Of a stretch of DNA of 13,767 bases, positions 253 through 13,767 are shown piece by piece. The stretch's first letter is position 1. The number at the start of each line of letters is the position of its first letter. The DNA is from a virus. Its lineage: Duplodnaviria > Heunggongvirae > Uroviricota > Caudoviricetes. The notes below the pieces were generated by a model that was given only the letters and a program-made list of their open reading frames with translations, was not told the origin of the DNA and searched no databases. The stretch lies in the IMG/VR virus record IMGVR_UViG_2531839532_000006. The stretch is one strand, 5' to 3'. Both the position numbers and the translations under genes were made by a program.

Positions 253-1566
253 ATGATCAAAGAGACTGTTACGATGAGTCATAAGGAACTCCACCGACTT
301 CAGACTATTCAGGAACAAGCTGCGGCACGCATTGGCATTTCTATTCGGCAGGTTAAACGTCTGGTGCAACGGTATAGAAATGAAGGGCCTTCTGGTCTGG
401 TTTCCCACCGACGTGGAAAGCGTCCTAATAATTCCTTTTCTACTGAATTCAGAGCAACAGTAATTTCACTCCTCAAAGGCCGTTACGCTGATTTTGGACC
501 TACGTTTGCGTGCGAAAAATTGCGCGAGATACACGGTTTATCTTTATCCGTTGAAACTCTCAGAAAGTGGATGATAGAAGAGGGGTTATGGCGTGAACGC
601 CGTCGTAAAATTGCCCGTATATATCAACGCCGCATGCGACGACCATCTTACGGTGAACTGATCCAGATTGATGGCTCACCTCATGACTGGTTTGAAAATC
701 GAGGCCCCAGATGTACACTGATCGTTTTCATTGATGATGCCACCAGTGCGTTGATGGCGTTGCGTTTTGTGCCTGCTGAAACAACCCGGGCTTACATGGA
801 AACCCTCCGGGGTTACCTTAATGATCATGGCGTACCGCTCGCTCTCTACTCTGATAGACACAGTATATTCAGGGTAAATAACCCAGAGCGGGAAGGTGAG
901 CTGACCCAGTTCACTCGTGCGATAAAGACACTGGGCATCGAGCCAATCCATGCCAACAGCCCGCAGGCAAAAGGGCGGGTAGAGCGCGCCAATCAGACAC
1001 TACAGGACAGGCTGGTCAAAGAAATGCGGCTTCAGAATATCAGTGATATTGAAACAGCAAATGCATGGTTGCCGACCTTTATTGAAGCCTATAACAACCG
1101 GTTCGCTACGTCGCCTCGTACTACTGATAATGCTCATCTTGATGTGCACCATTCTGAAGAGGAACTGGGTTATATCTTCAGCCTACAGGCGAAGCGCGTT
1201 CTGTCTAAAAATCTCACTTTCCAGTACAAAAGCAGTGCGTTTCAGGTACGCAGTGAGGGCCGGGGATATCGACTTAGGCATTCGGTTGTTACTGTATGCG
1301 AGAACTTTGACGGTGAAATTAACGTTCTGTATGACGGGAAAGCGCTGGGCTGGGAAAAGTATGTTGATGGCCCGGAGCCTATACCACTGGATGATGAAAA
1401 GAGTGTCCATGAACGAGTGGATAATGCCCGTATTGATTTACGCTCAAAATACTATGTTAAACCTAAAGCTGACCATCCCTGGCTTACGCGCCGAACGCAA
1501 AGTCATCAGCAAGTTAAGCCCCCGAAGTTACCTAAAAAGAAGCCTGATCCCGATAAAAAAGATTGA
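253..1566 (+). CDS. DDE-type (rve integrase-core) IS transposase with N-terminal HTH; family not resolved (ISNCY / IS481-like)
   Basis: 437-aa ORF. N-terminus is HTH-like (RIGISIRQVKRLVQRY). Core has acidic residues spaced like a DDE triad (IQIDGSPHDW ... ALYSDRHSIF ... GRVERANQTLQ). ATG at 274 (MSHKEL) is an alternative start. Confidence 0.75.
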   Translation: MIKETVTMSHKELHRLQTIQEQAAARIGISIRQVKRLVQRYRNEGPSGLVSHRRGKRPNNSFSTEFRATVISLLKGRYADFGPTFACEKLREIHGLSLSVETLRKWMIEEGLWRERRRKIARIYQRRMRRPSYGELIQIDGSPHDWFENRGPRCTLIVFIDDATSALMALRFVPAETTRAYMETLRGYLNDHGVPLALYSDRHSIFRVNNPEREGELTQFTRAIKTLGIEPIHANSPQAKGRVERANQTLQDRLVKEMRLQNISDIETANAWLPTFIEAYNNRFATSPRTTDNAHLDVHHSEEELGYIFSLQAKRVLSKNLTFQYKSSAFQVRSEGRGYRLRHSVVTVCENFDGEINVLYDGKALGWEKYVDGPEPIPLDDEKSVHERVDNARIDLRSKYYVKPKADHPWLTRRTQSHQQVKPPKLPKKKPDPDKKD

Positions 1567-2002
1567 AACCAAGATCGATTCGGCTGAGTGCATATCCATT
1601 CATAGGGTAGATTCTTAAGTCGCGTTTCTGGTGTTCATTTTCGGGTGGTTTGTTACTTGTTTTACCGGGGATATGCCAGAAACGCGCTGAGTCAGTCTGG
1701 GCGGTGCGCGTAATGAGGCGTTATGGTAAATAGCCTATGCTAATGTCCGCTAAGAGCAAGAAGCGGAAGTTGGCAGTTTTGTGGACTGTCCCCACAAAAG
1801 TGACTACAGAAATAGTTGCAATTCATAATTGATCATGGGTTGTCAGTTAAACTCGTGGCGATTTAAATAGACTAATTGGGAGTGCGTCCATTACTTATAT
1901 CTTGTAATGTTAACTATCAGAAATGATACAAAGATAATATGTCTTTAAAGAAAAGGCTGATGGCGAAAAGTGGCCCGATGAGGGCCACAATACGGCTGTC
2001 AC

Positions 2003-2335
2003 TTAGACGTAAATATCAATGGTGCCAGCGGTATTTGTATCGTCTTTTTTCTCTTCTTTTTTATCAGGCTGAACTGTCGCGTCTTCATTCTTTTTCTCTG
2101 CCTGCTGCCTTAACAACTGCTCCAGTTGAGCCCAGAGGCTTTCAATTTGCTTCTGTACCAATGCAGCCATTTCTTTTTTCTGCTGTGTCGTCATCCCCTC
2201 TTCCGATGAGATTTTCCCAAGCTTTTCAGTCAGCACCTGAATTTGTCTTGTGATTTTGGCTATTTCTGATGTTCCTTCCGGGGCGGAGTTGTTTGAAATA
2301 ACGGTTGAGGTATTTCCCTGAATTGTGACAGACAT
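2003..2335 (-). CDS. flxA: FlxA-like protein (Gln/Lys-rich, coiled-coil-like; FliA-regulated in E. coli K-12 Qin prophage)
   Basis: 110-aa ORF with RBS AAAAGGAGAAATCT before the ATG. A sigma-28 type promoter lies immediately upstream. Gene order flxA / ydfV / relB / relE / hokD matches the Qin prophage as I recall it. Confidence 0.6.
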   Translation of the reverse strand: MSVTIQGNTSTVISNNSAPEGTSEIAKITRQIQVLTEKLGKISSEEGMTTQQKKEMAALVQKQIESLWAQLEQLLRQQAEKKNEDATVQPDKKEEKKDDTNTAGTIDIYV

Positions 2336-2358
2336 AGATTTCTCCTTTTAAAAAAGCA

Positions 2359-2385
2359 CTATCGGCATGCACAAAAAAATCTTTA
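2359..2385 (-). promoter_or_regulatory. sigma-28 (FliA) class III promoter for flxA: -35 TAAAGATT, 11-nt spacer, -10 GCCGATAG (read on minus strand)
   Basis: Reverse complement of 2359-2385 gives TAAAGATT-N11-GCCGATAG, against the consensus TAAAGTTT-N11-GCCGATAA. It sits about 25 nt upstream of the flxA start codon. Confidence 0.6.
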
Positions 2386-2537
2386 ATCGTATTTCTTGTG
2401 TCATTAATTGTTTGATGTTCAGATTGTTTTCCTCGCGGGCTGGCGCGCCTCAGAAAGTAAAGCTTGTTGACAGGGGTAAACGTTCGGCAATAATTTTCTG
2501 CCGCATGCGGGTGTTGCATAAAACGTGTTACGTTCCT

Positions 2538-2843
2538 TTATCGACAGGTCAGGTCACCGCTCACCCGCCGACGAGAAAGCAACACTGACATGCTAAAGCA
2601 AAAAATAGATGAATAAGTTGAGTTGTGCATATGTAGCCTGACCGTCACAAAGTATATGGTGTCTGTACCAGTAAGATGATGGCCGGACTCTTTAAAAACG
2701 AGCTGACCTGCACAATACAGGATGGACTTAGCAATGGCTGCTCCTGGCACAAAGCGGACAGTGATCACCGTTCTTACGACTACTTTCTGACTTCCTTCGT
2801 GACTTGCCCTAAGCATGTTGTAGTGCGATACTTGTAATGACAT
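2538..2843 (-). CDS. ydfV: Hypothetical protein, ydfV-like by position and length (101 aa)
   Basis: 101-aa ORF divergent from relB. Its start codon falls inside the relBE operator region and no RBS is evident, so it may not be translated. Confidence 0.3.
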   Translation of the reverse strand: MSLQVSHYNMLRASHEGSQKVVVRTVITVRFVPGAAIAKSILYCAGQLVFKESGHHLTGTDTIYFVTVRLHMHNSTYSSIFCFSMSVLLSRRRVSGDLTCR

Positions 2844-2856
2844 TTGTAATTACAAG
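2832..2856 (+). promoter_or_regulatory. relBE operator (relO): TTGTAAT repeats including the 12-bp perfect palindrome TTGTAATTACAA
   Basis: CTTGTAATGACATTTGTAATTACAAG lies directly upstream of the relB RBS (AGAGGTG) and start codon. The palindrome at 2844-2855 is seen directly. Confidence 0.6.
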
Positions 2857-2867
2857 AGGTGTAAGAC

Positions 2868-3107
2868 ATGGGTAGCATTAACCTGCGTATTGACGATGAA
2901 CTTAAAGCGCGTTCTTACGCCGCGCTTGAAAAAATGGGTGTAACTCCTTCTGAAGCGCTTCGTCTCATGCTCGAGTATATCGCTGACAATGAACGCTTGC
3001 CGTTCAAACAGACACTCCTGAGTGATGAAGATGCTGAACTTGTGGAGATAGTGAAAGAACGGCTTCGTAATCCTAAGCCAGTACGTGTGACGCTGGATGA
3101 ACTCTGA
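2868..3107 (+). CDS. relB: RelB antitoxin (ribbon-helix-helix)
   Basis: 79-aa ORF MGSINLRIDDELKARSYAALEKMGVTPSEALRLMLEYIADNERLPF... recognised as E. coli RelB. Its stop overlaps the relE start (ATGA at 3104-3110). Confidence 0.9.
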   Translation: MGSINLRIDDELKARSYAALEKMGVTPSEALRLMLEYIADNERLPFKQTLLSDEDAELVEIVKERLRNPKPVRVTLDEL

Positions 3108-3394
3108 TGGCGTATTTTCTGGATTTTGACGAGCGGGCACTAAAGGAATGGCGAAAGCTGGGCTCGACGGTACGTGAACAGTTGAAAAAGAAGCTGGTTG
3201 AAGTACTTGAGTCACCCCGGATTGAAGCAAACAAGCTCCGTGGTATGCCTGATTGTTACAAGATTAAGCTCCGGTCTTCAGGCTATCGCCTTGTATACCA
3301 GGTTATAGACGAGAAAGTTGTCGTTTTCGTGATTTCTGTTGGGAAAAGAGAACGCTCGGAAGTATATAGCGAGGCGGTCAAACGCATTCTCTGA
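3107..3394 (+). CDS. relE: RelE mRNA-interferase toxin
   Basis: 95-aa ORF MAYFLDFDERALKEWRKLGSTVREQLKKKLVEVLESPRIEANKLRGMPDCYKIKLRSSGYRLVYQVIDEKVVVFVISVGKRERSEVYSEAVKRIL recognised as E. coli RelE, translationally coupled to relB. Confidence 0.9.
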   Translation: MAYFLDFDERALKEWRKLGSTVREQLKKKLVEVLESPRIEANKLRGMPDCYKIKLRSSGYRLVYQVIDEKVVVFVISVGKRERSEVYSEAVKRIL

Positions 3395-3465
3395 ACCAAA
3401 GCATGACATCTCTGTTTCGCACCGAAGGTGACACTTCTGCTTTGCGTTGACAGGAGAAGCAGGCT

Positions 3466-3621
3466 ATGAAGCAGCAAAAGGCGATGTTAATCGCCCTGAT
3501 CGTCATCTGTTTAACCGTCATAGTGACGGCACTGGTAACGAGGAAAGACCTCTGCGAGGTACGAATCCGAACCGGCCAGACGGAGGTCGCTGTCTTCACA
3601 GCTTACGAACCTGAGGAGTAA
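3466..3621 (+). CDS. hokD: Hok-family small membrane toxin (HokD / RelF)
   Basis: 51-aa ORF below the ORF-track cutoff, translated by hand: MKQQKAMLIALIVICLTVIVTALVTRKDLCEVRIRTGQTEVAVFTAYEPEE. RBS GGAGAAGCAGG precedes the ATG at 3466; stop TAA at 3619-3621. One TM helix plus the conserved Hok C-terminus. Confidence 0.8.
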   Translation: MKQQKAMLIALIVICLTVIVTALVTRKDLCEVRIRTGQTEVAVFTAYEPEE

Positions 3622-5121: not shown

Positions 5122-5496
5122 ATGCTCATAGATTTGGTTTTACCTTACCCGCCGACGGTGAACACTTACTGGCGACGCCGTGGCAGCACATATTTTGTAT
5201 CAAAAGCCGGGGAGCGTTATCGCCGGGCAGTGGCGCTTATTGTTCGCCAGCAGCGGCTGAAATTAAGCCTGTCCGGAAGGCTGGCGATAAAGGTGATTGC
5301 AGAGCCACCGGATAAGCGTCGTCGCGACCTGGACAATATCCTGAAAGCACCGCTGGATGCGCTGACGCATGCGGGAGTGTTAATGGACGATGAGCAGTTT
5401 GATGAAATCAATATCGTTCGTGGTCAGCCAGTATCTGGAGGACCTCTGGGGGTGAAGATTTACCCCATAATGCATGAAGAGCAGGTCAAAAAATGA
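5122..5496 (+). CDS. rusA: RusA-family Holliday-junction resolvase
   Basis: 124-aa ORF with LPYPPTVNTYWRRRG and RRRDLDNILKAPLDALTHAGVLMDDEQ motifs typical of RusA. SD AGAGGTG upstream; nin-region position immediately before Q. Confidence 0.85.
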   Translation: MLIDLVLPYPPTVNTYWRRRGSTYFVSKAGERYRRAVALIVRQQRLKLSLSGRLAIKVIAEPPDKRRRDLDNILKAPLDALTHAGVLMDDEQFDEINIVRGQPVSGGPLGVKIYPIMHEEQVKK

Positions 5497-6314
5497 AACT
5501 GGAAGATTTACCGAAATACTACTCCCCAAAATCCCCTTGCCTGACCGATGCATCGGCCTCAACGTCAAAAGATGCGCTGAGTATCACTGATGTGATGGCC
5601 GCGCAGGGCATGACACAGAATCGGGCTGAGATGGGGTTTTCTGCGTTCCTGGGGAAAATGGGCATCAGTATGAATGACAGGGCGCGGGCAACAGAATTAC
5701 TGGCAGATTATGCACTCAGTCGGTGCGATCGTGTGGCGGCGTTGAGAAAACTTCCGGCAGAAATAAAACCGGTAGTGATGCGCATTATGGCTACGTATGC
5801 GTTTGAAGATTATGCCCGCAGTGCAGCGAGTAAAAAGCAGTGTCCTTGTTGCCGTGGGGAAAAATTTATTGAAAGCATAGTTTTTACAAACAAGGTCCAG
5901 TATCCGGATGGTAAGCCGCCGGTATGGGCAAAGTGTACGAAAGGTGTGTATCCGTCTTACTGGGAAGAATGGAAAAAAGTCAGGGAGGTGGTAAAAGTTG
6001 CCTGTCCGGAGTGTGGCGGAAAGGGTGAGGTTTCCACCGCCTGTAAGGATTGCCGTGGGCGTGGTGTCGCCATTCATCGTGAAGAGTCGGTAAAACGTGG
6101 TATGCCTGTTATCAGAGACTGCCAGCGTTGTGATGGTCGTGGCTGTGAAAGACTACCATCAACGGAGGCATTTAATGCCATACGCAAAGTGACGAGTGCT
6201 ATCACGCTTGATACGTGGAAAAAATCAGTGAAACGCTTTTACGATACGTTGGTGGTTCGGTTTGACATTGAAGAGGCATGGGCGGAGCGGCAGTTAAAGA
6301 GGGTAACGCGATAG
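5493..6314 (+). CDS. Q: Late-gene antiterminator Q (zinc-ribbon-rich; Q82 / QuuQ-like)
   Basis: 273-aa ORF whose start overlaps the rusA stop (ATGA). Contains CPCCRG, CPECGGKG, CKDCRGRG and CQRCDGRG repeats. A promoter plus intrinsic terminator follow immediately downstream, as expected for Q. Confidence 0.7.
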   Translation: MKLEDLPKYYSPKSPCLTDASASTSKDALSITDVMAAQGMTQNRAEMGFSAFLGKMGISMNDRARATELLADYALSRCDRVAALRKLPAEIKPVVMRIMATYAFEDYARSAASKKQCPCCRGEKFIESIVFTNKVQYPDGKPPVWAKCTKGVYPSYWEEWKKVREVVKVACPECGGKGEVSTACKDCRGRGVAIHREESVKRGMPVIRDCQRCDGRGCERLPSTEAFNAIRKVTSAITLDTWKKSVKRFYDTLVVRFDIEEAWAERQLKRVTR

Positions 6315-7985: not shown

Positions 7986-8061
7986 GGCCCTTTAGCTCAG
8001 TGGTGAGAGCGAGCGACTCATAATCGCCAGGTCGCTGGTTCAAATCCAGCAAGGGCCACCA
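7986..8061 (+). tRNA. ileZ: tRNA with CAU anticodon, ileZ-like (tRNA-Ile2 after lysidine modification, or tRNA-Met)
   Basis: Hand-folded cloverleaf: acceptor GGCCCTT / AAGGGCC, D-arm GCTC...GAGC, anticodon loop CTCATAA, T-arm GCTGG-TTCAAAT-CCAGC, encoded CCA. One A-C mismatch at the top of the anticodon stem. Confidence 0.8.
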
Positions 8062-8161
8062 TCACAAACCGCCATTAGCTTATCAGGAAGAGCAGACGAC
8101 ACGATAACAGGGTTGTTGGTGCGGGGGCGGGTCCCCGATGGCGGTCCATTATCGGTATTCA

Positions 8162-8235
8162 GCGTTGTTAGCTCAGCCGGACAGAGCAATTGCCTTCTAA
8201 GCAATCGGTCACTGGTTCGAATCCAGTACAGCGCG
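8162..8235 (+). tRNA. tRNA-Arg (anticodon UCU), argO-like; 3' CCA not encoded
   Basis: Hand-folded cloverleaf: acceptor GCGTTGT / ACAGCGC (one G-U pair), D-arm GCTC...GAGC, anticodon stem ATTGC / GCAAT with loop CTTCTAA, T-arm ACTGG-TTCGAAT-CCAGT. Discriminator G is followed by CTA. Confidence 0.8.
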
Positions 8236-8375
8236 CTATATTCATTCTTCCAGATTCCTTCCGGCAGAGCCTTATACTGAAATATACCTGGCTCAGGATA
8301 TTGTTGAAAATATTTTATGTTTGTCAAAAATAAAAGTTCTGTTAAGTATTGATTGAGTGTTTGTTATACGGTCTA

Positions 8376-8702: not shown

Positions 8703-9093
8703 ATACATATCTGGATTATCACTTGTTACGGTAAAAAGTGATTGCTTACTGTTTTTGTGAGTGGCATTGCAGCAGCCGGATAATGTCAGTGCTGGCTGAC
8801 GGTGTGCTGGTGGCGGGTGTGGTGGTTGTTGCTTTCCCGTTGCTGAAAAAGAAAACGCCAGACTGTTAGCCGGGTATCAGTTAGCGGGAGAAATTTTTAA
8901 ATACTTCACAATTCAGGCGGTTGACTGTTGTCTGGTTTGCGGGGAGTTTGTTAAAAGAAACTGGCATGGTGAATCCCCCTGTGCGGAGGGGCAATCAGCG
9001 AGTAGGTATATGGGATAATCGCGGATTCAGGTGCTGGTACTGAATTCACCGGGAGGCACCCGGCACCATGCAATGGCACATAGCGCCACTCTC

Positions 9094-9120
9094 CAGCCCC
9101 TCTCCGGAGGGGCTGTTTAT
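9094..9120 (+). terminator. Intrinsic terminator inside the cargo island
   Basis: CAGCCCCTC-TCCG-GAGGGGCTG hairpin followed by TTTATATTGATTTT. Confidence 0.5.
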
Positions 9121-9146
9121 ATTGATTTTGTCAGATGTGAGTAAAC

Positions 9147-9180
9147 TCCTTATGGACTTTGTTGTTTTAGTCCATAAGGA
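9147..9180 (-). terminator. Perfect 12-bp stem-loop overlapping the 3' end of the minus-strand ORF (possible terminator)
   Basis: TCCTTATGGACT-(10-nt loop)-AGTCCATAAGGA. On the minus strand it is followed by GTTTACTC, only moderately U-rich. It encodes the last residues (PYGLKQQSP) of ORF 9150..9485. Confidence 0.4.
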
Positions 9181-9485
9181 CATATTTGCAGAGTGCAACG
9201 GTTATTAAAGCATTCATTCAATACGTTATCTGTATTTGTAGGACATTCCTGGCTGTTTTTGATTAAATTCCAGAATGTTTTATTGAATGGTACTACGTTG
9301 TAAATGGTTACAGGTAGCACTTTGTTATTGAGCATGATACCTGTGTGAGTCAGTGTAAATATACTTTCAGGAGGTAAGAAAGCATCCGATTGATACCAGA
9401 TTATTAATTTTATTTTACTCCATATGACTGAAAAAGATATTCCGCATGATGGCTGGATAACTGTATCAATCACAATCCACTTCAT
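9150..9485 (-). CDS. Hypothetical protein in AT-rich cargo DNA, antisense to the late operon
   Basis: 111-aa ORF with a plausible RBS AAGGAAG about 5 nt before the ATG on the minus strand, and a possible -10 TATACT upstream. No signal peptide recognised; several Cys near the C-terminus. Confidence 0.4.
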
Positions 9486-9745
9486 TTAGCTTCCTTGTTT
9501 ATGCCTTGCTGGTGATGTTCTGAAAAGTATAAATGATATTTTTGAATATAAACCATAGAGCAGAATTATTTTTCTGATGTTGTTTATTGTTTATTTAAAT
9601 GCAGGGTGGTTTATATCTCGTCTTGTAGTTTATCCATGCATATCTGCTTGATGATCAGGTTTCTATTTAAGGTATGGTTTTGTGTTTTTTCTGTGTTACA
9701 TGTCTGGTATTTTAAAGAATTATTTTTCAGATGGTGGAAAGAACC

Positions 9746-9934
9746 ATGGCATTTAAACACTATGATGTTGTCAGGGCGGCGCCGCCGTCAGATCTTGCGG
9801 AAAAGCTGACACATAAACTGAAAGAGGGCTGGCAGCCGTTTGGTAGTCCGGTGGCCATAACCCCTTATACCCTGATGCAGGCGATTGCAGCAGAAGGTGA
9901 TGTGGTGGTCAGTGGTGCAACTGAGCCCGAGTGA
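9746..9934 (+). CDS. Small hypothetical protein (62 aa), possibly a DUF1737-type small prophage protein
   Basis: MAFKHYDVVRAAPPSDLAEKLTHKLKEGWQPFGSPVAITPYTLMQAIAAEGDVVVSGATEPE with RBS-like GGTGGAAAGAA upstream. The ORF track starts it at 9731. The family assignment is a weak recollection only. Confidence 0.45.
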   Translation: MAFKHYDVVRAAPPSDLAEKLTHKLKEGWQPFGSPVAITPYTLMQAIAAEGDVVVSGATEPE

Positions 9935-10089
9935 TACTACGTCATCGTACTGGCCCGGCATTCCAGGCCATAAAAGACAGTCTGGCAGTGGGACTAAATG
10001 TACTGACGCTGACGGATATTACCAAAAATGCAACGTATGGCGTTGAGATAGAAAGTCTGGTGCTGGAGATAAATGCACCGGCATCATCA
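9931..10089 (+). CDS. Possible small ORF (52 aa, GTG start) overlapping the previous stop (GTGA)
   Basis: VILRHRTGPAFQAIKDSLAVGLNVLTLTDITKNATYGVEIESLVLEINAPASS. No ATG in frame; could be a coupled gene or the frameshifted remainder of the upstream gene. Confidence 0.2.
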
Positions 10090-10177
10090 TAAAAAGTGAG
10101 CCAGTCAAATGGAAGGTATCGTTAAACTCACCGGTAGTGTCAGTGGGTCGTCTGAGATGCCTGCATGAGTTATCAGA

Positions 10178-10207
10178 GCCATCAGTACTTAACTGGTGGC
10201 TTTTTTT
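10178..10207 (+). terminator. Strong intrinsic terminator immediately upstream of the holin gene
   Basis: GCCATCAGT-ACTTA-ACTGGTGGC hairpin (one G-U pair) followed by TTTTTTT. Confidence 0.6.
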
Positions 10208-10242
10208 ATTGTTGTCAGCTTCCGGATAACGGGAGACGGGGT

Positions 10243-10458
10243 ATGTACCAGATGGAAAAAATCACAACAGGTGTGTCATACACCACGTCAGCGGTGGGAA
10301 CGGGCTACTGGTTCCTGCAGTTGCTGGACAGGGTTTCCCCGTCTCAGTGGGCGGCAATAGGCGTGCTGGGGAGTCTGCTGTTTGGGCTGCTGACATATCT
10401 GACTAACCTGTATTTCAAAATCAGAGAGGACCGTCGTAAGGCGGCACGGGGAGAGTAA
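10243..10458 (+). CDS. S: Class II holin, phage-21 S21-type pinholin, with dual-start motif (Met1 / Met4)
   Basis: 71 aa [79 protein letters not shown] sits 7 nt upstream. The longer ORF-track version from 10165 is an unsupported N-terminal extension. Confidence 0.85.
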
Positions 10459-10462
10459 TTCA

Positions 10463-10777
10463 ATGACTCAAAACTATGAACTGATTGTGAAAGGGATCCG
10501 CAATTTTGAGAATAAAGTTACGGTAACTTTAGCGTTACGGGACAAAAAACGCTTTGACGGTGAAATTTTTGACCTGGACATCTCGCTGGACCGTGTTGAA
10601 GGTGCCGCGCTGGAGTTTTATGAGGCAGCAGCCAGAAGGAGCATCAGACAGGTCTTCCTGGATGTTGCTGCCGGGTTATGTGAAGGGGACGAGCTGTTGC
10701 CAGAAACGCGCCCCTGTTCAGAGGCGCGGTATACCATAAAAATTAACAGTTCTGATAACTCGATTACGGGTTGTTAG
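10463..10777 (+). CDS. ydfR: YdfR-like hypothetical protein between holin and endolysin
   Basis: 104-aa ORF starting 5 nt after the holin stop. Position and length match ydfR of the Qin lysis cassette as I recall it. Confidence 0.5.
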   Translation: MTQNYELIVKGIRNFENKVTVTLALRDKKRFDGEIFDLDISLDRVEGAALEFYEAAARRSIRQVFLDVAAGLCEGDELLPETRPCSEARYTIKINSSDNSITGC

Positions 10778-10832
10778 CTTTTTGCAGTTGGCTTTCCAGT
10801 ATCTTTCATTGGTAGCATCCTGATAAATATCC

Positions 10833-11366
10833 ATGAGCGCAAAAATCAAATACGGCCTGTCAGCTGCTGTTCTGGCGCTGATTGCTGCAGGCGCGTCTGC
10901 TCCTCAGATACTTGACCAGTTTCTGGACGAAAAAGAGGGTAACCACACAACGGCATACCGCGATGGTTCCGGCAACTGGACCATCTGTCGGGGGGCCACG
11001 ATGGTGGATGGAAAACCCGTTTTTCCCGGTATGAAACTGTCGAAGGAAAAATGCGACCAGGTCAACGCCATTGAGCGTGATAAGGCGCTGGCATGGGTGG
11101 AGAAAAACATCAAAGTGCCATTGAGCGAACCCCAGAAAGCGGGGATCGCGTCATTCTGTCCGTACAACATTGGTCCCGGTAAGTGTTTCCCGTCGACGTT
11201 TTATAAACGAATTAATGCAGGTGATCACAGGGGAGCGTGTGAGGCGATTCGCTGGTGGATTAAGGACGGTGGCAGAGACTGCCGTATTCGTTCAAACAAT
11301 TGCTACGGTCAGGTATCCCGTCGTGACCAGGAGAGCGCGCTGGCGTGCTGGGGTATCGACAGATAA
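10833..11366 (+). CDS. R: SAR endolysin (T4-lysozyme-like muramidase with N-terminal signal-anchor-release domain)
   Basis: 177-aa ORF with a Gly/Ala-rich weakly hydrophobic N-terminus (YGLSAAVLALIAAGASAP) and an E-8aa-D-5aa-T catalytic spacing (DEKEGNHTTAYRDGSGNWT). Partner of the pinholin. Confidence 0.9.
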   Translation: MSAKIKYGLSAAVLALIAAGASAPQILDQFLDEKEGNHTTAYRDGSGNWTICRGATMVDGKPVFPGMKLSKEKCDQVNAIERDKALAWVEKNIKVPLSEPQKAGIASFCPYNIGPGKCFPSTFYKRINAGDHRGACEAIRWWIKDGGRDCRIRSNNCYGQVSRRDQESALACWGIDR

Positions 11367-12436: not shown

Positions 12437-12715
12437 TTAGTGCGGAAATATTTGTGTAGTGTTCTGAATGTTCTCAGTAAAGAGTAATGAATTATCAAAG
12501 GTATAGTAATATCTTTTGTTTTCGTGGATATTTGTAATCCATCTGAAAACCCCTGCTGTAGCAAGATTTTTCCTGTATTCGTAAAATGATAACTCTCCTG
12601 ATTTGAATCCTTTTAAGGTGGCTTCTATAAGGCATTTATTTTTTGAAAATCTTACATTTACAACCTTACCCTGCTCTCCAATGACTAGTCTAAAAACTAG
12701 TATTAAGACTATCAC
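12437..12715 (-). CDS. Hypothetical protein in AT-rich DNA after the lysis cassette (bor-position moron)
   Basis: 92-aa ORF with a GTG start and no clear RBS. The start codon lies inside a 20-bp perfect palindrome; a stem-loop at 12400-12428 follows the stop. Confidence 0.3.
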
Positions 12716-13299: not shown

Positions 13300-13509
13300 G
13301 TTGTGATATGTAGATGATAATCATTATCACTTTACGGGTCCTTTCCGGTGATCCGACAGGTTACGGGGCGGCGACCTCGCGGGTTTTCGCTATTTATGAA
13401 AATTTTCCGGTTTAAGGTGTTTCCGTTCTTCTTCGTCGTAACTTAATGTTTTTATTTAAAATACCCCCTGAAAAGAAAGGAAACGACAGGTGCTGAAAGC
13501 GGGCTTTTT
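13300..13509. other. Lambda-type cos site: cosQ region, cosN (12-nt cohesive end GGGCGGCGACCT at 13365-13376), cosB R3 and R2; R1 displaced
   Basis: 13200-13364 matches the lambda right end as I remember it (...GGTGATCCGACAGGTTACG). 13365-13509 matches the lambda left end (GGGCGGCGACCTCGCGGGTTTTCGCTATTTATGAAAATTTTCCGGTTTAAGG...AAAGGAAACGACAGGTGCTGAAAGCG) with a few substitutions, and similarity stops at 13509. Confidence 0.75.
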
Positions 13510-13767
13510 GTAAGCGACTCGTCAGAACCGTATTGATATTTACTGAGAGCTCAGATCAACTTTCCAGGGCAACAGATCGCGTACCCGGTTTGCCGGCCAG
13601 TCCTGGATATGTTCAATGACGTAACGCAGCCACTTTTCTGGCTCCACATTGTTCAGACGGCATGTGCCGATCAGCGAGTACAACACCGCCGCATGTTCAC
13701 CACCGCTGTCGGAACCCGCGAACATCCAGTTTTTCCGGCCTACGGCCACTCCCCGTAAGGCGTTCTC
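13510..13767 (-). mobile_element. IS66-family insertion sequence, terminal part (GTAAGCG terminus), extending beyond the window
   Basis: Similarity to lambda cos ends at 13509. 13510 begins GTAAGCGACTCG, the terminal motif typical of IS66-family ends, and an IS66-type transposase C-terminus is encoded about 30 bp inside. Confidence 0.7.
13540..13767 (-). CDS. IS66-family transposase (TnpC), C-terminal portion; 5' part lies beyond the window
   Basis: Minus-strand frame is open to the window edge and reads ENALRGVAVGRKNWMFAGSDSGGEHAAVLYSLIGTCRLNNVEPEKWLRYVIEHIQDWPANRVRDLLPWKVDLSSQ, the conserved IS66 TnpC C-terminus. Confidence 0.75.
   Translation of the reverse strand, partial: ENALRGVAVGRKNWMFAGSDSGGEHAAVLYSLIGTCRLNNVEPEKWLRYVIEHIQDWPANRVRDLLPWKVDLSSQ

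Follow-up and report, generated by a model that had tools for sequence, protein, structure and literature searches.

NanS-p proteins are SASA-family 9-O-acetyl-sialate esterases in which an N-terminal DUF1737 domain is followed by a SASA catalytic domain and a C-terminal lectin-like domain, DUF6645. The prophage-borne 9-O-acetyl-N-acetylneuraminic acid esterases of this type include z1466/L0105 of phage 933W and vb_24B_21/gp84 of phage phi24B. In lambdoid prophages the nanS-p gene is carried on the late transcript, between the Q and tRNA genes and the holin gene. These prophage enzymes are well studied and de-O-acetylate the sialic acids of mucins (PMC8065619, PMC10462455). The DUF1737 portion of phi24B gp84, residues 2–57, was reported to be a hexameric capsid decoration that is located at the hexon centres and held by an anchoring Tyr loop, and the remainder of the NanS-p esterase is cleaved off (preprint 10.64898/2026.04.10.717836). 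Most of the DUF1737 proteins in InterPro are single-domain proteins according to the same preprint.

The locus described here occupies positions 9746..10092 (plus strand) of the DNA that was analyzed, a stretch of 13,767 nucleotides from IMG/VR record IMGVR_UViG_2531839532_000006 that is referred to as the window. The locus is very probably a pseudogene, what is left of a prophage nanS-p gene after its collapse. The window is a segment of a Qin-like lambdoid prophage, and coverage of it by any complete E. coli genome in the collection does not exceed 74%. It begins with an IS transposase gene, followed by flxA, relBE, and hokD, by DUF968, rusA, and Q (5493–6314), and by a DNA methylase gene and two tRNA genes (7986–8236). 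Next are DUF3927, STnc100, and iraM, the remnant itself, the holin, ydfR, lysozyme (10833), and Rz/Rz1 (11665) genes, and finally DUF1398 and DUF3950. The remnant is thus located between the Q/tRNA genes and the lysis cassette, which is the late-transcript position of nanS-p genes and also that of the intact gene in E. coli strain B1-56 (L001).

Two overlapping reading frames are present at the locus. ORF1 (9746..9934, plus strand) opens with an ATG at 9746 and continues for 62 sense codons to a TGA at 9932–9934. ORF2 (9931..10092, plus strand) opens with a GTG at 9931–9933 and contains 53 sense codons (the GTG plus 52) before a TAA at 10090–10092. The two frames share the nucleotides GTGA at 9931–9934, and the pair with this overlap lies ~150 nt 5′ of the phage-21-type holin gene. 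An earlier note on this DNA had described ORF1 as a 62-aa frame whose TGA overlaps a GTG, and the sequence reads as described. The same note had given the second frame as lacking an ATG and as lying upstream of the holin gene; there is no internal Met within ORF2, and the next real gene, at 10243..10458 on the plus strand, encodes a class II (phage 21 S-type) holin (PF04971, Phage_holin_2_1, E=9e-33). The GTG frame itself was read correctly, but its length had been given as 52 rather than 53 codons. The start of the locus had been placed at 9731, where an in-frame ATG does exist and provides a 67-aa version of ORF1, but homology and the RefSeq annotation place the real start of the gene at 9746. 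The ribosome-binding site of ORF1 is the native one, GGTGGA, 7 nt upstream of the start.

Profile searches were conducted with both products. ORF1 contains a complete DUF1737 domain at aa 3–50 (Pfam PF08410, E=3.4e-17, profile positions 1–53 of 53), and the score of 62.5 bits compares with a cut-off of 24 bits. The assignment of the first product to DUF1737, offered only tentatively in the earlier note, is thereby borne out. ORF2 provided no match in the Pfam search, and no Pfam match to SASA (PF03629) was obtained for either frame. In PHROG, ORF1 corresponds to positions 1–58 and ORF2 to positions 582–632 of the 634 positions of phrog_143, and the separate searches that had been proposed for the two products thus identified the second as the opposite end of the same family, even though Pfam was silent on it. 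An AlphaFold2 model of ORF1 from a 20-sequence alignment contains two helices and is of low confidence (mean pLDDT 65, pTM 0.41). A 53-codon open frame is unremarkable, as 102 ORFs of at least 40 aa are found within the 13.8-kb window. The absence of stops from ORF2 is explained by 46 of its 53 codons, which form the original 3′ end of a genuine gene.

The region from 9700 to 10250 was compared with 5,426 complete E. coli genomes using megablast. At least 80% of the query is covered in 836 of these genomes. Many other genomes match only positions 251–551 of the query, which contain the 3′ end of an esterase gene and the holin gene, and many others match only positions ~47–272, the 5′ end of a SASA family esterase gene. 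The locus in L001, where a 617-aa “SASA family carbohydrate esterase” is encoded directly upstream of the same holin, was used as the intact reference. The 5′ arm, window positions 9745–9965, aligns with L001 2289–2509 over 221 nt with 96.8% identity and without gaps, beginning at the first codons of the gene, and positions 9746..9955 correspond to codons 1–70. The 3′ arm, window positions 9950–10497, aligns with L001 4001–4546 over 548 nt with 97.3% identity and spans the last esterase codons, the intergenic region, and the holin gene. Positions 9950..10092 of this arm represent the last 46 esterase codons in their native frame. Within the remnant, the 210 nt at the 5′ end and the 143 nt at the 3′ end are 97% identical to the intact 617-aa E. 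coli allele.

The two arms overlap in the BLAST alignments by 16 nt at the junction (9950–9965). Alignment and comparison of the repeats identified a microhomology, CTGGCC, at 9950..9955 as the deletion junction. This hexamer is the perfectly matched core of a 16-nt imperfect repeat, CTGGCCGGGCAGTCCA / CTGGCCCGGCATTCCA, that is present at both breakpoints of the intact gene. The window carries the 3′ version of the repeat, and the crossover is therefore placed in CTGGCC at 9950–9955. The missing segment is 1507 bp in length (3 × 502 + 1) and contains codons 71–571. Since 1507 is of the form 3n + 1, the two remaining ends are in different frames. Codons 64–70 of the old gene (YYVIVLA; 9935..9955, plus strand), as located by the L001 alignment and the translations, are now 3′ of the stop. 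The same bases read in the other frame give the seven non-native codons of ORF2, VILRHRT. The 3′ remnant (9956..10092, plus strand) is the end of the native codon run G572–S617, which starts inside the junction at ~9952, together with the native TAA, and is identified by L001 from 4001 onward, phrog_143, and PDB 6yp6. ORF2 consequently consists of 7 out-of-frame codons and 46 native C-terminal residues, and its stop codon is that of the esterase.

The intact protein contains DUF1737 at residues 3–50, SASA at 66–262, and DUF6645 at 467–577. Residues 59–379 match the structure of E. coli NanS (PDB 3pt5, E=2e-121), and residues 421–613 match the C-terminal domain of NanS-p (PDB 6yp6). The sequence LAGQSN is located at residues 69–74 of the intact protein, and the window breaks after A70 (VLA/GQSN). 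Loss of residues 71–571 therefore eliminates the GQSN block together with the entire SASA catalytic domain and leaves very little of the lectin-like domain. When compared with chromosomal NanS (YjhS), only ~12 residues (59–70) of the matched segment survive in the window, and most of these are 3′ of the stop. The remnant shares with NanS-p the N-terminal DUF1737 domain and 46 residues from the end of the lectin-like jelly-roll domain at the C-terminus (DUF6645), which is otherwise missing; the match to 6yp6 is limited to aa 19–49 of ORF2 and the final 31 residues of the structure. It differs from NanS-p in the loss of residues 71–571, in the out-of-frame ends, and in a premature stop at codon 63. 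When compared with the phi24B protein itself, ORF1 is only 55% identical and the C-terminal tail 30%. The remnant should be incapable of acting as an esterase. The window contains no continuous frame of about 617–645 codons. The proposal in the earlier note that one gene had been broken is therefore correct as to a single broken gene, but the size of ~114 aa is not, as the intact protein is about 617–645 aa in length. The lesion is also not the frameshift near 9930 that had been suggested but a 1507-bp out-of-frame deletion at 9950–9955 together with a separate nonsense mutation at 9932–9934.

The nonsense codon was examined in additional alleles. Codon 63 and its neighbors read GAG TGG TAC in the intact gene and GAG TGA TAC in the window (W63*, TGA at 9932..9934, plus strand). 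The TGA, and the GTGA overlap that depends on it, thus arose by a nonsense mutation from the TGG of the intact gene. Alleles with the same junction were compared at 11 E. coli genome loci and in phage record ON470621.1. The 33-nt junction sequence was found in 79 IMG/VR contigs; among the GTDB species representatives it is present in one only, an E. coli. There are 76 alleles, the window included, that cover the whole region. TGA/GTG is present in 66 of these, and TGG/TTG in the other 10, which include the type strain ATCC 11775. In the 10 TGG alleles the first frame crosses the junction to a TAA at 9971–9973 and encodes 75 aa. Some alleles thus have the deletion without the stop, and it follows that the deletion predates the stop. 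An origin of the junction in sequencing or assembly error was rejected, because it recurs in hundreds of independent genomes. Readthrough of the TGA was rejected as well, since it would reach only the TAA at 9971–9973.

ORF1 is annotated by RefSeq/PGAP as a pseudogene (“incomplete; missing C-terminus”) in 12 of the 12 inspected E. coli loci with the junction. ORF2 is called a CDS by RefSeq in several genomes, as the “hypothetical protein” WP_001355909.1, and is omitted where a stop is present, as in EC958. Three IMG/VR contigs with the same deletion junction (L066, L040, and L048) differ downstream, and in L066 the divergence is strong beyond window position ~10085, a sign of additional rearrangement or recombination right where the remnant ends. 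A separate truncation of nanS-p was observed in E. coli 09-00049 (L005, 2547–2861). This allele has another breakpoint, retains DUF1737 and ~50 further codons, and is followed by a different class II holin gene. The esterase body has therefore been lost with retention of the 5′ end more than once.

Polymorphism was analyzed in the 63 clean TGA-type alleles. The holin gene, used as the control for purifying selection, contains 8 non-synonymous and 17 synonymous changes (pN/pS 0.16, p=1e-5). The native part of ORF2 contains 12 non-synonymous or nonsense changes and 2 synonymous changes (pN/pS 2.15), and a stop codon, Q12*, interrupts the frame in 5 of the 63 alleles, including that of EC958. ORF2 is under no coding constraint; purifying selection is absent, unlike in the holin gene. 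For ORF1 the corresponding counts are 5 and 2 (pN/pS 0.78), a ratio indistinguishable from neutral, and W29G, a change in the conserved EGWQP motif, is found in three alleles. There is no clear sign that ORF1 is under selection. Variable sites were counted at 7 of 186 nt in ORF1, 14 of 134 in ORF2, and 18 of 196 in flanking non-coding DNA (p ~0.02–0.04, uncorrected and with non-independent alleles). In the flanks, much of the variation appears to stem from recombination, and the low variant density of ORF1 is a weak hint.

These results document a two-step decay of nanS-p. In one step, 1507 bp were deleted between the imperfect 16-nt repeats through a crossover in CTGGCC, and codons 70 and 572 became joined out of frame; the repeat probably promoted this deletion through slippage or illegitimate recombination. 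In the other step, which the deletion alleles that lack the stop place later, codon 63 changed from TGG to TGA. The outcome is a 62-aa frame with DUF1737 only and an accidental GTG frame of 7 out-of-frame and 46 native codons. Esterase function would have been lost, and ORF2 would yield no functional product; it is a by-product frame and an annotation artefact, not a gene. ORF1 may still be translated from its native ribosome-binding site when the late operon is on, most likely as a passenger. Its pseudogene status is already marked in RefSeq, and the locus is a routine prophage pseudogene. The protein database contains many shortened or frameshifted DUF1737 fragments from E. coli. A homologue search with ORF1 returned 146 short, mostly “partial” fragments from E. 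coli and Shigella and zero full-length proteins.

Two readings of the paired frames had been put forward earlier. If ORF1 and ORF2 were small late-operon genes coupled in translation through GTGA, the overlap, which does exist and is retained in 66 of the 76 alleles, would have a role, and the annotation of ORF2 as a CDS by RefSeq in several genomes would be in keeping with it. The overlap, however, came about when a gene remnant acquired a nonsense mutation, and it is replaced by TGG and TTG in the 10 remaining alleles. ORF2 is interrupted by Q12* in some alleles and its pN/pS shows no purifying selection, no Shine–Dalgarno-like sequence was found ahead of its GTG (GCAACTGAGCCCGA), and its 46 native codons specify the last strands of a ~200-aa jelly-roll that would be unlikely to fold alone behind seven out-of-frame residues. 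Coupling of the two frames is extremely improbable. The chance is also close to nil that a single gene of ~114 aa is expressed by programmed frameshifting, or was split by a simple frameshift near 9930. In favor of such a gene, the frames adjoin each other and could be fused by a −1 shift. This fusion, however, would join residues 1–62 to residues 572–617 of a 617-aa protein, and the continuous ~114-aa frame that was to be looked for in homologous loci was found in none of them; without the TGA, the first frame ends at the TAA noted above. No slippery heptamer was found in GCAACTGAGCCCGAGTGA, and there are no frame-restoring indels in the 76 alleles.

Another reading, which is unlikely, retains a function for ORF1 as a working stand-alone DUF1737 protein that would decorate the capsids of its own or a co-resident prophage, with ORF2 as junk. 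Truncation would then have produced at the gene level what proteolysis yields in phi24B, whose capsids carry a matured 57-residue fragment. A general form of this proposal, in which nanS-p is repeatedly pared to DUF1737 and the 62-aa product would serve as a capsid-decoration (or other) protein in trans on co-resident lambdoid prophages, is similarly improbable. If true, this general form would account for the presence of the allele in ~15% of complete E. coli genomes. The reported decoration of the capsid by DUF1737 of phi24B after the esterase part is cleaved off, and the single-domain make-up of most DUF1737 proteins in InterPro (preprint 10.64898/2026.04.10.717836), argue for such a function. 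ORF1 holds the full domain, its length of 62 aa is close to that of the phi24B fragment bound to capsids (residues 2–57), and it ends a few residues past the reported NanS-p cleavage point. Over the first 33 residues it is nearly identical to gp84, and a Tyr (Y41) is present in the loop that corresponds to the anchoring Tyr42 loop of gp84. The second half of the domain, the anchoring loop included, nevertheless differs from that of phi24B, with 55% identity overall in the domain. The native start context of ORF1 is kept and its variant density is below that of the flanks, but pN/pS is neutral-like and W29G falls within EGWQP in three alleles. The independent truncation in 09-00049 likewise keeps DUF1737, although retention of the 5′ end is the outcome of any internal or 3′ deletion, and many of the short E. 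coli DUF1737 entries in the database are plainly fragments.

The capsid genes that accompany the allele were also considered. In phage record ON470621.1 the same allele is found beside an intact-looking HK97-type head module, but the head protein of this module (phrog_10; phage 716R1) shows no sequence relationship to the major capsid protein of phi24B (phrog_334). In the window, the end of an IS66-family element replaces the terminase and head genes after cos, and the prophage of strain 300709, which has an identical allele, is without portal or capsid genes. The capsid proteins associated with the remnant are thus unrelated to those of phi24B or absent. ORF1 also differs from stand-alone DUF1737 proteins in having arisen by truncation of a multidomain gene, with no evidence of selection. 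The complete DUF1737 domain, the low variant density of ORF1, and the high frequency of the allele (836 of 5426 complete E. coli genomes) leave room for a residual function of ORF1; they do not contradict the origin of the locus as a pseudogene of nanS-p.

The identification of the locus as a nanS-p pseudogene has little meaning for biology at large, and its practical value is in annotation. WP_001355909.1 and its relatives (phrog_12088/phrog_6393) propagate in databases as genes. The 62–67-aa “DUF1737 protein” (phrog_2036) is also propagated as a gene, and in this lineage both products are opposite ends of one nanS-p gene that suffered a deletion. Such remnants will be included in counts of single-domain DUF1737 proteins, which have been used to argue for a widespread stand-alone decoration family. 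In strains with this allele, one copy of a mucin-sialic-acid esterase is gone.

Additional features were identified 3′ of the remnant. A strong terminator-like hairpin with 12 pairs and a T-run is located at 10175..10212 (plus strand), between the stop of the remnant and the holin gene. This hairpin is inside the 3′ arm aligned to L001 and is thus also 3′ of the intact esterase gene; the late transcript presumably reads through it via Q antitermination. The lysis cassette (10243–11366) is of the phage-21 type, with a DUF1327/YdfR gene inserted between the holin and lysozyme genes. The holin begins with two start Mets a short distance apart (MYQMEK…), and the hydrophobic N-terminus of the lysozyme (MSAKIKYGLSAAVLALIAAGASAP…) looks like a signal-anchor-release domain. 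The DUF1398 ORF (12437–12715, minus strand) has a GTG start and encodes 92 aa that cover positions 50–119 of the 119-position profile; the corresponding protein in strain 300709 is 136 aa in length, and this ORF may be another damaged gene.

A lambda-type cosN, GGGCGGCGACCT, is found after DUF3950 at 13366–13377, with a cosB-like sequence nearly identical to the left end of lambda. It is followed by a terminal repeat of an IS66-family element (GTAAGCG…) at 13510 and by the C-terminus of an IS66-family transposase at 13540–13749 (minus strand). With this IS66-family end located after cos, the morphogenesis genes were therefore cut off or displaced. The 41-mer at the cos/IS66 junction is absent from the GTDB representatives. 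In strain 300709 a 4224-nt ORF annotated as “terminase gpA endonuclease subunit” (L007, 23419–27642) is followed directly by tail-fibre assembly genes. This prophage, with the identical remnant allele, has lost the entire head region and most of the tail region by a large in-frame fusion deletion.

Upstream of the remnant, an STnc100 sRNA (Rfam, 132 bits; 8935–9124, plus strand) adjoins a prophage-borne homologue of the anti-adaptor iraM (9150–9485, minus strand). The two tRNA genes, 3′ of the methylase gene, are located at 7986–8061 (anticodon CAT) and 8162–8236 (Arg, anticodon TCT). The CAT tRNA is identified as Met by ARAGORN and as Ile for the RefSeq homologue, and it is probably a lysidine-modified reader of AUA. 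Rare-codon tRNA pairs of this kind, CAT with Arg TCT, are typical of Stx-type lambdoid phages. At the beginning of the window (253–3621), the IS transposase gene, which encodes a protein of 437 aa with HTH domains, abuts the Qin-like flxA-relB-relE-hokD module. An ISEsa1/IS1202-like element is annotated at this transposase in neighbouring genomes.
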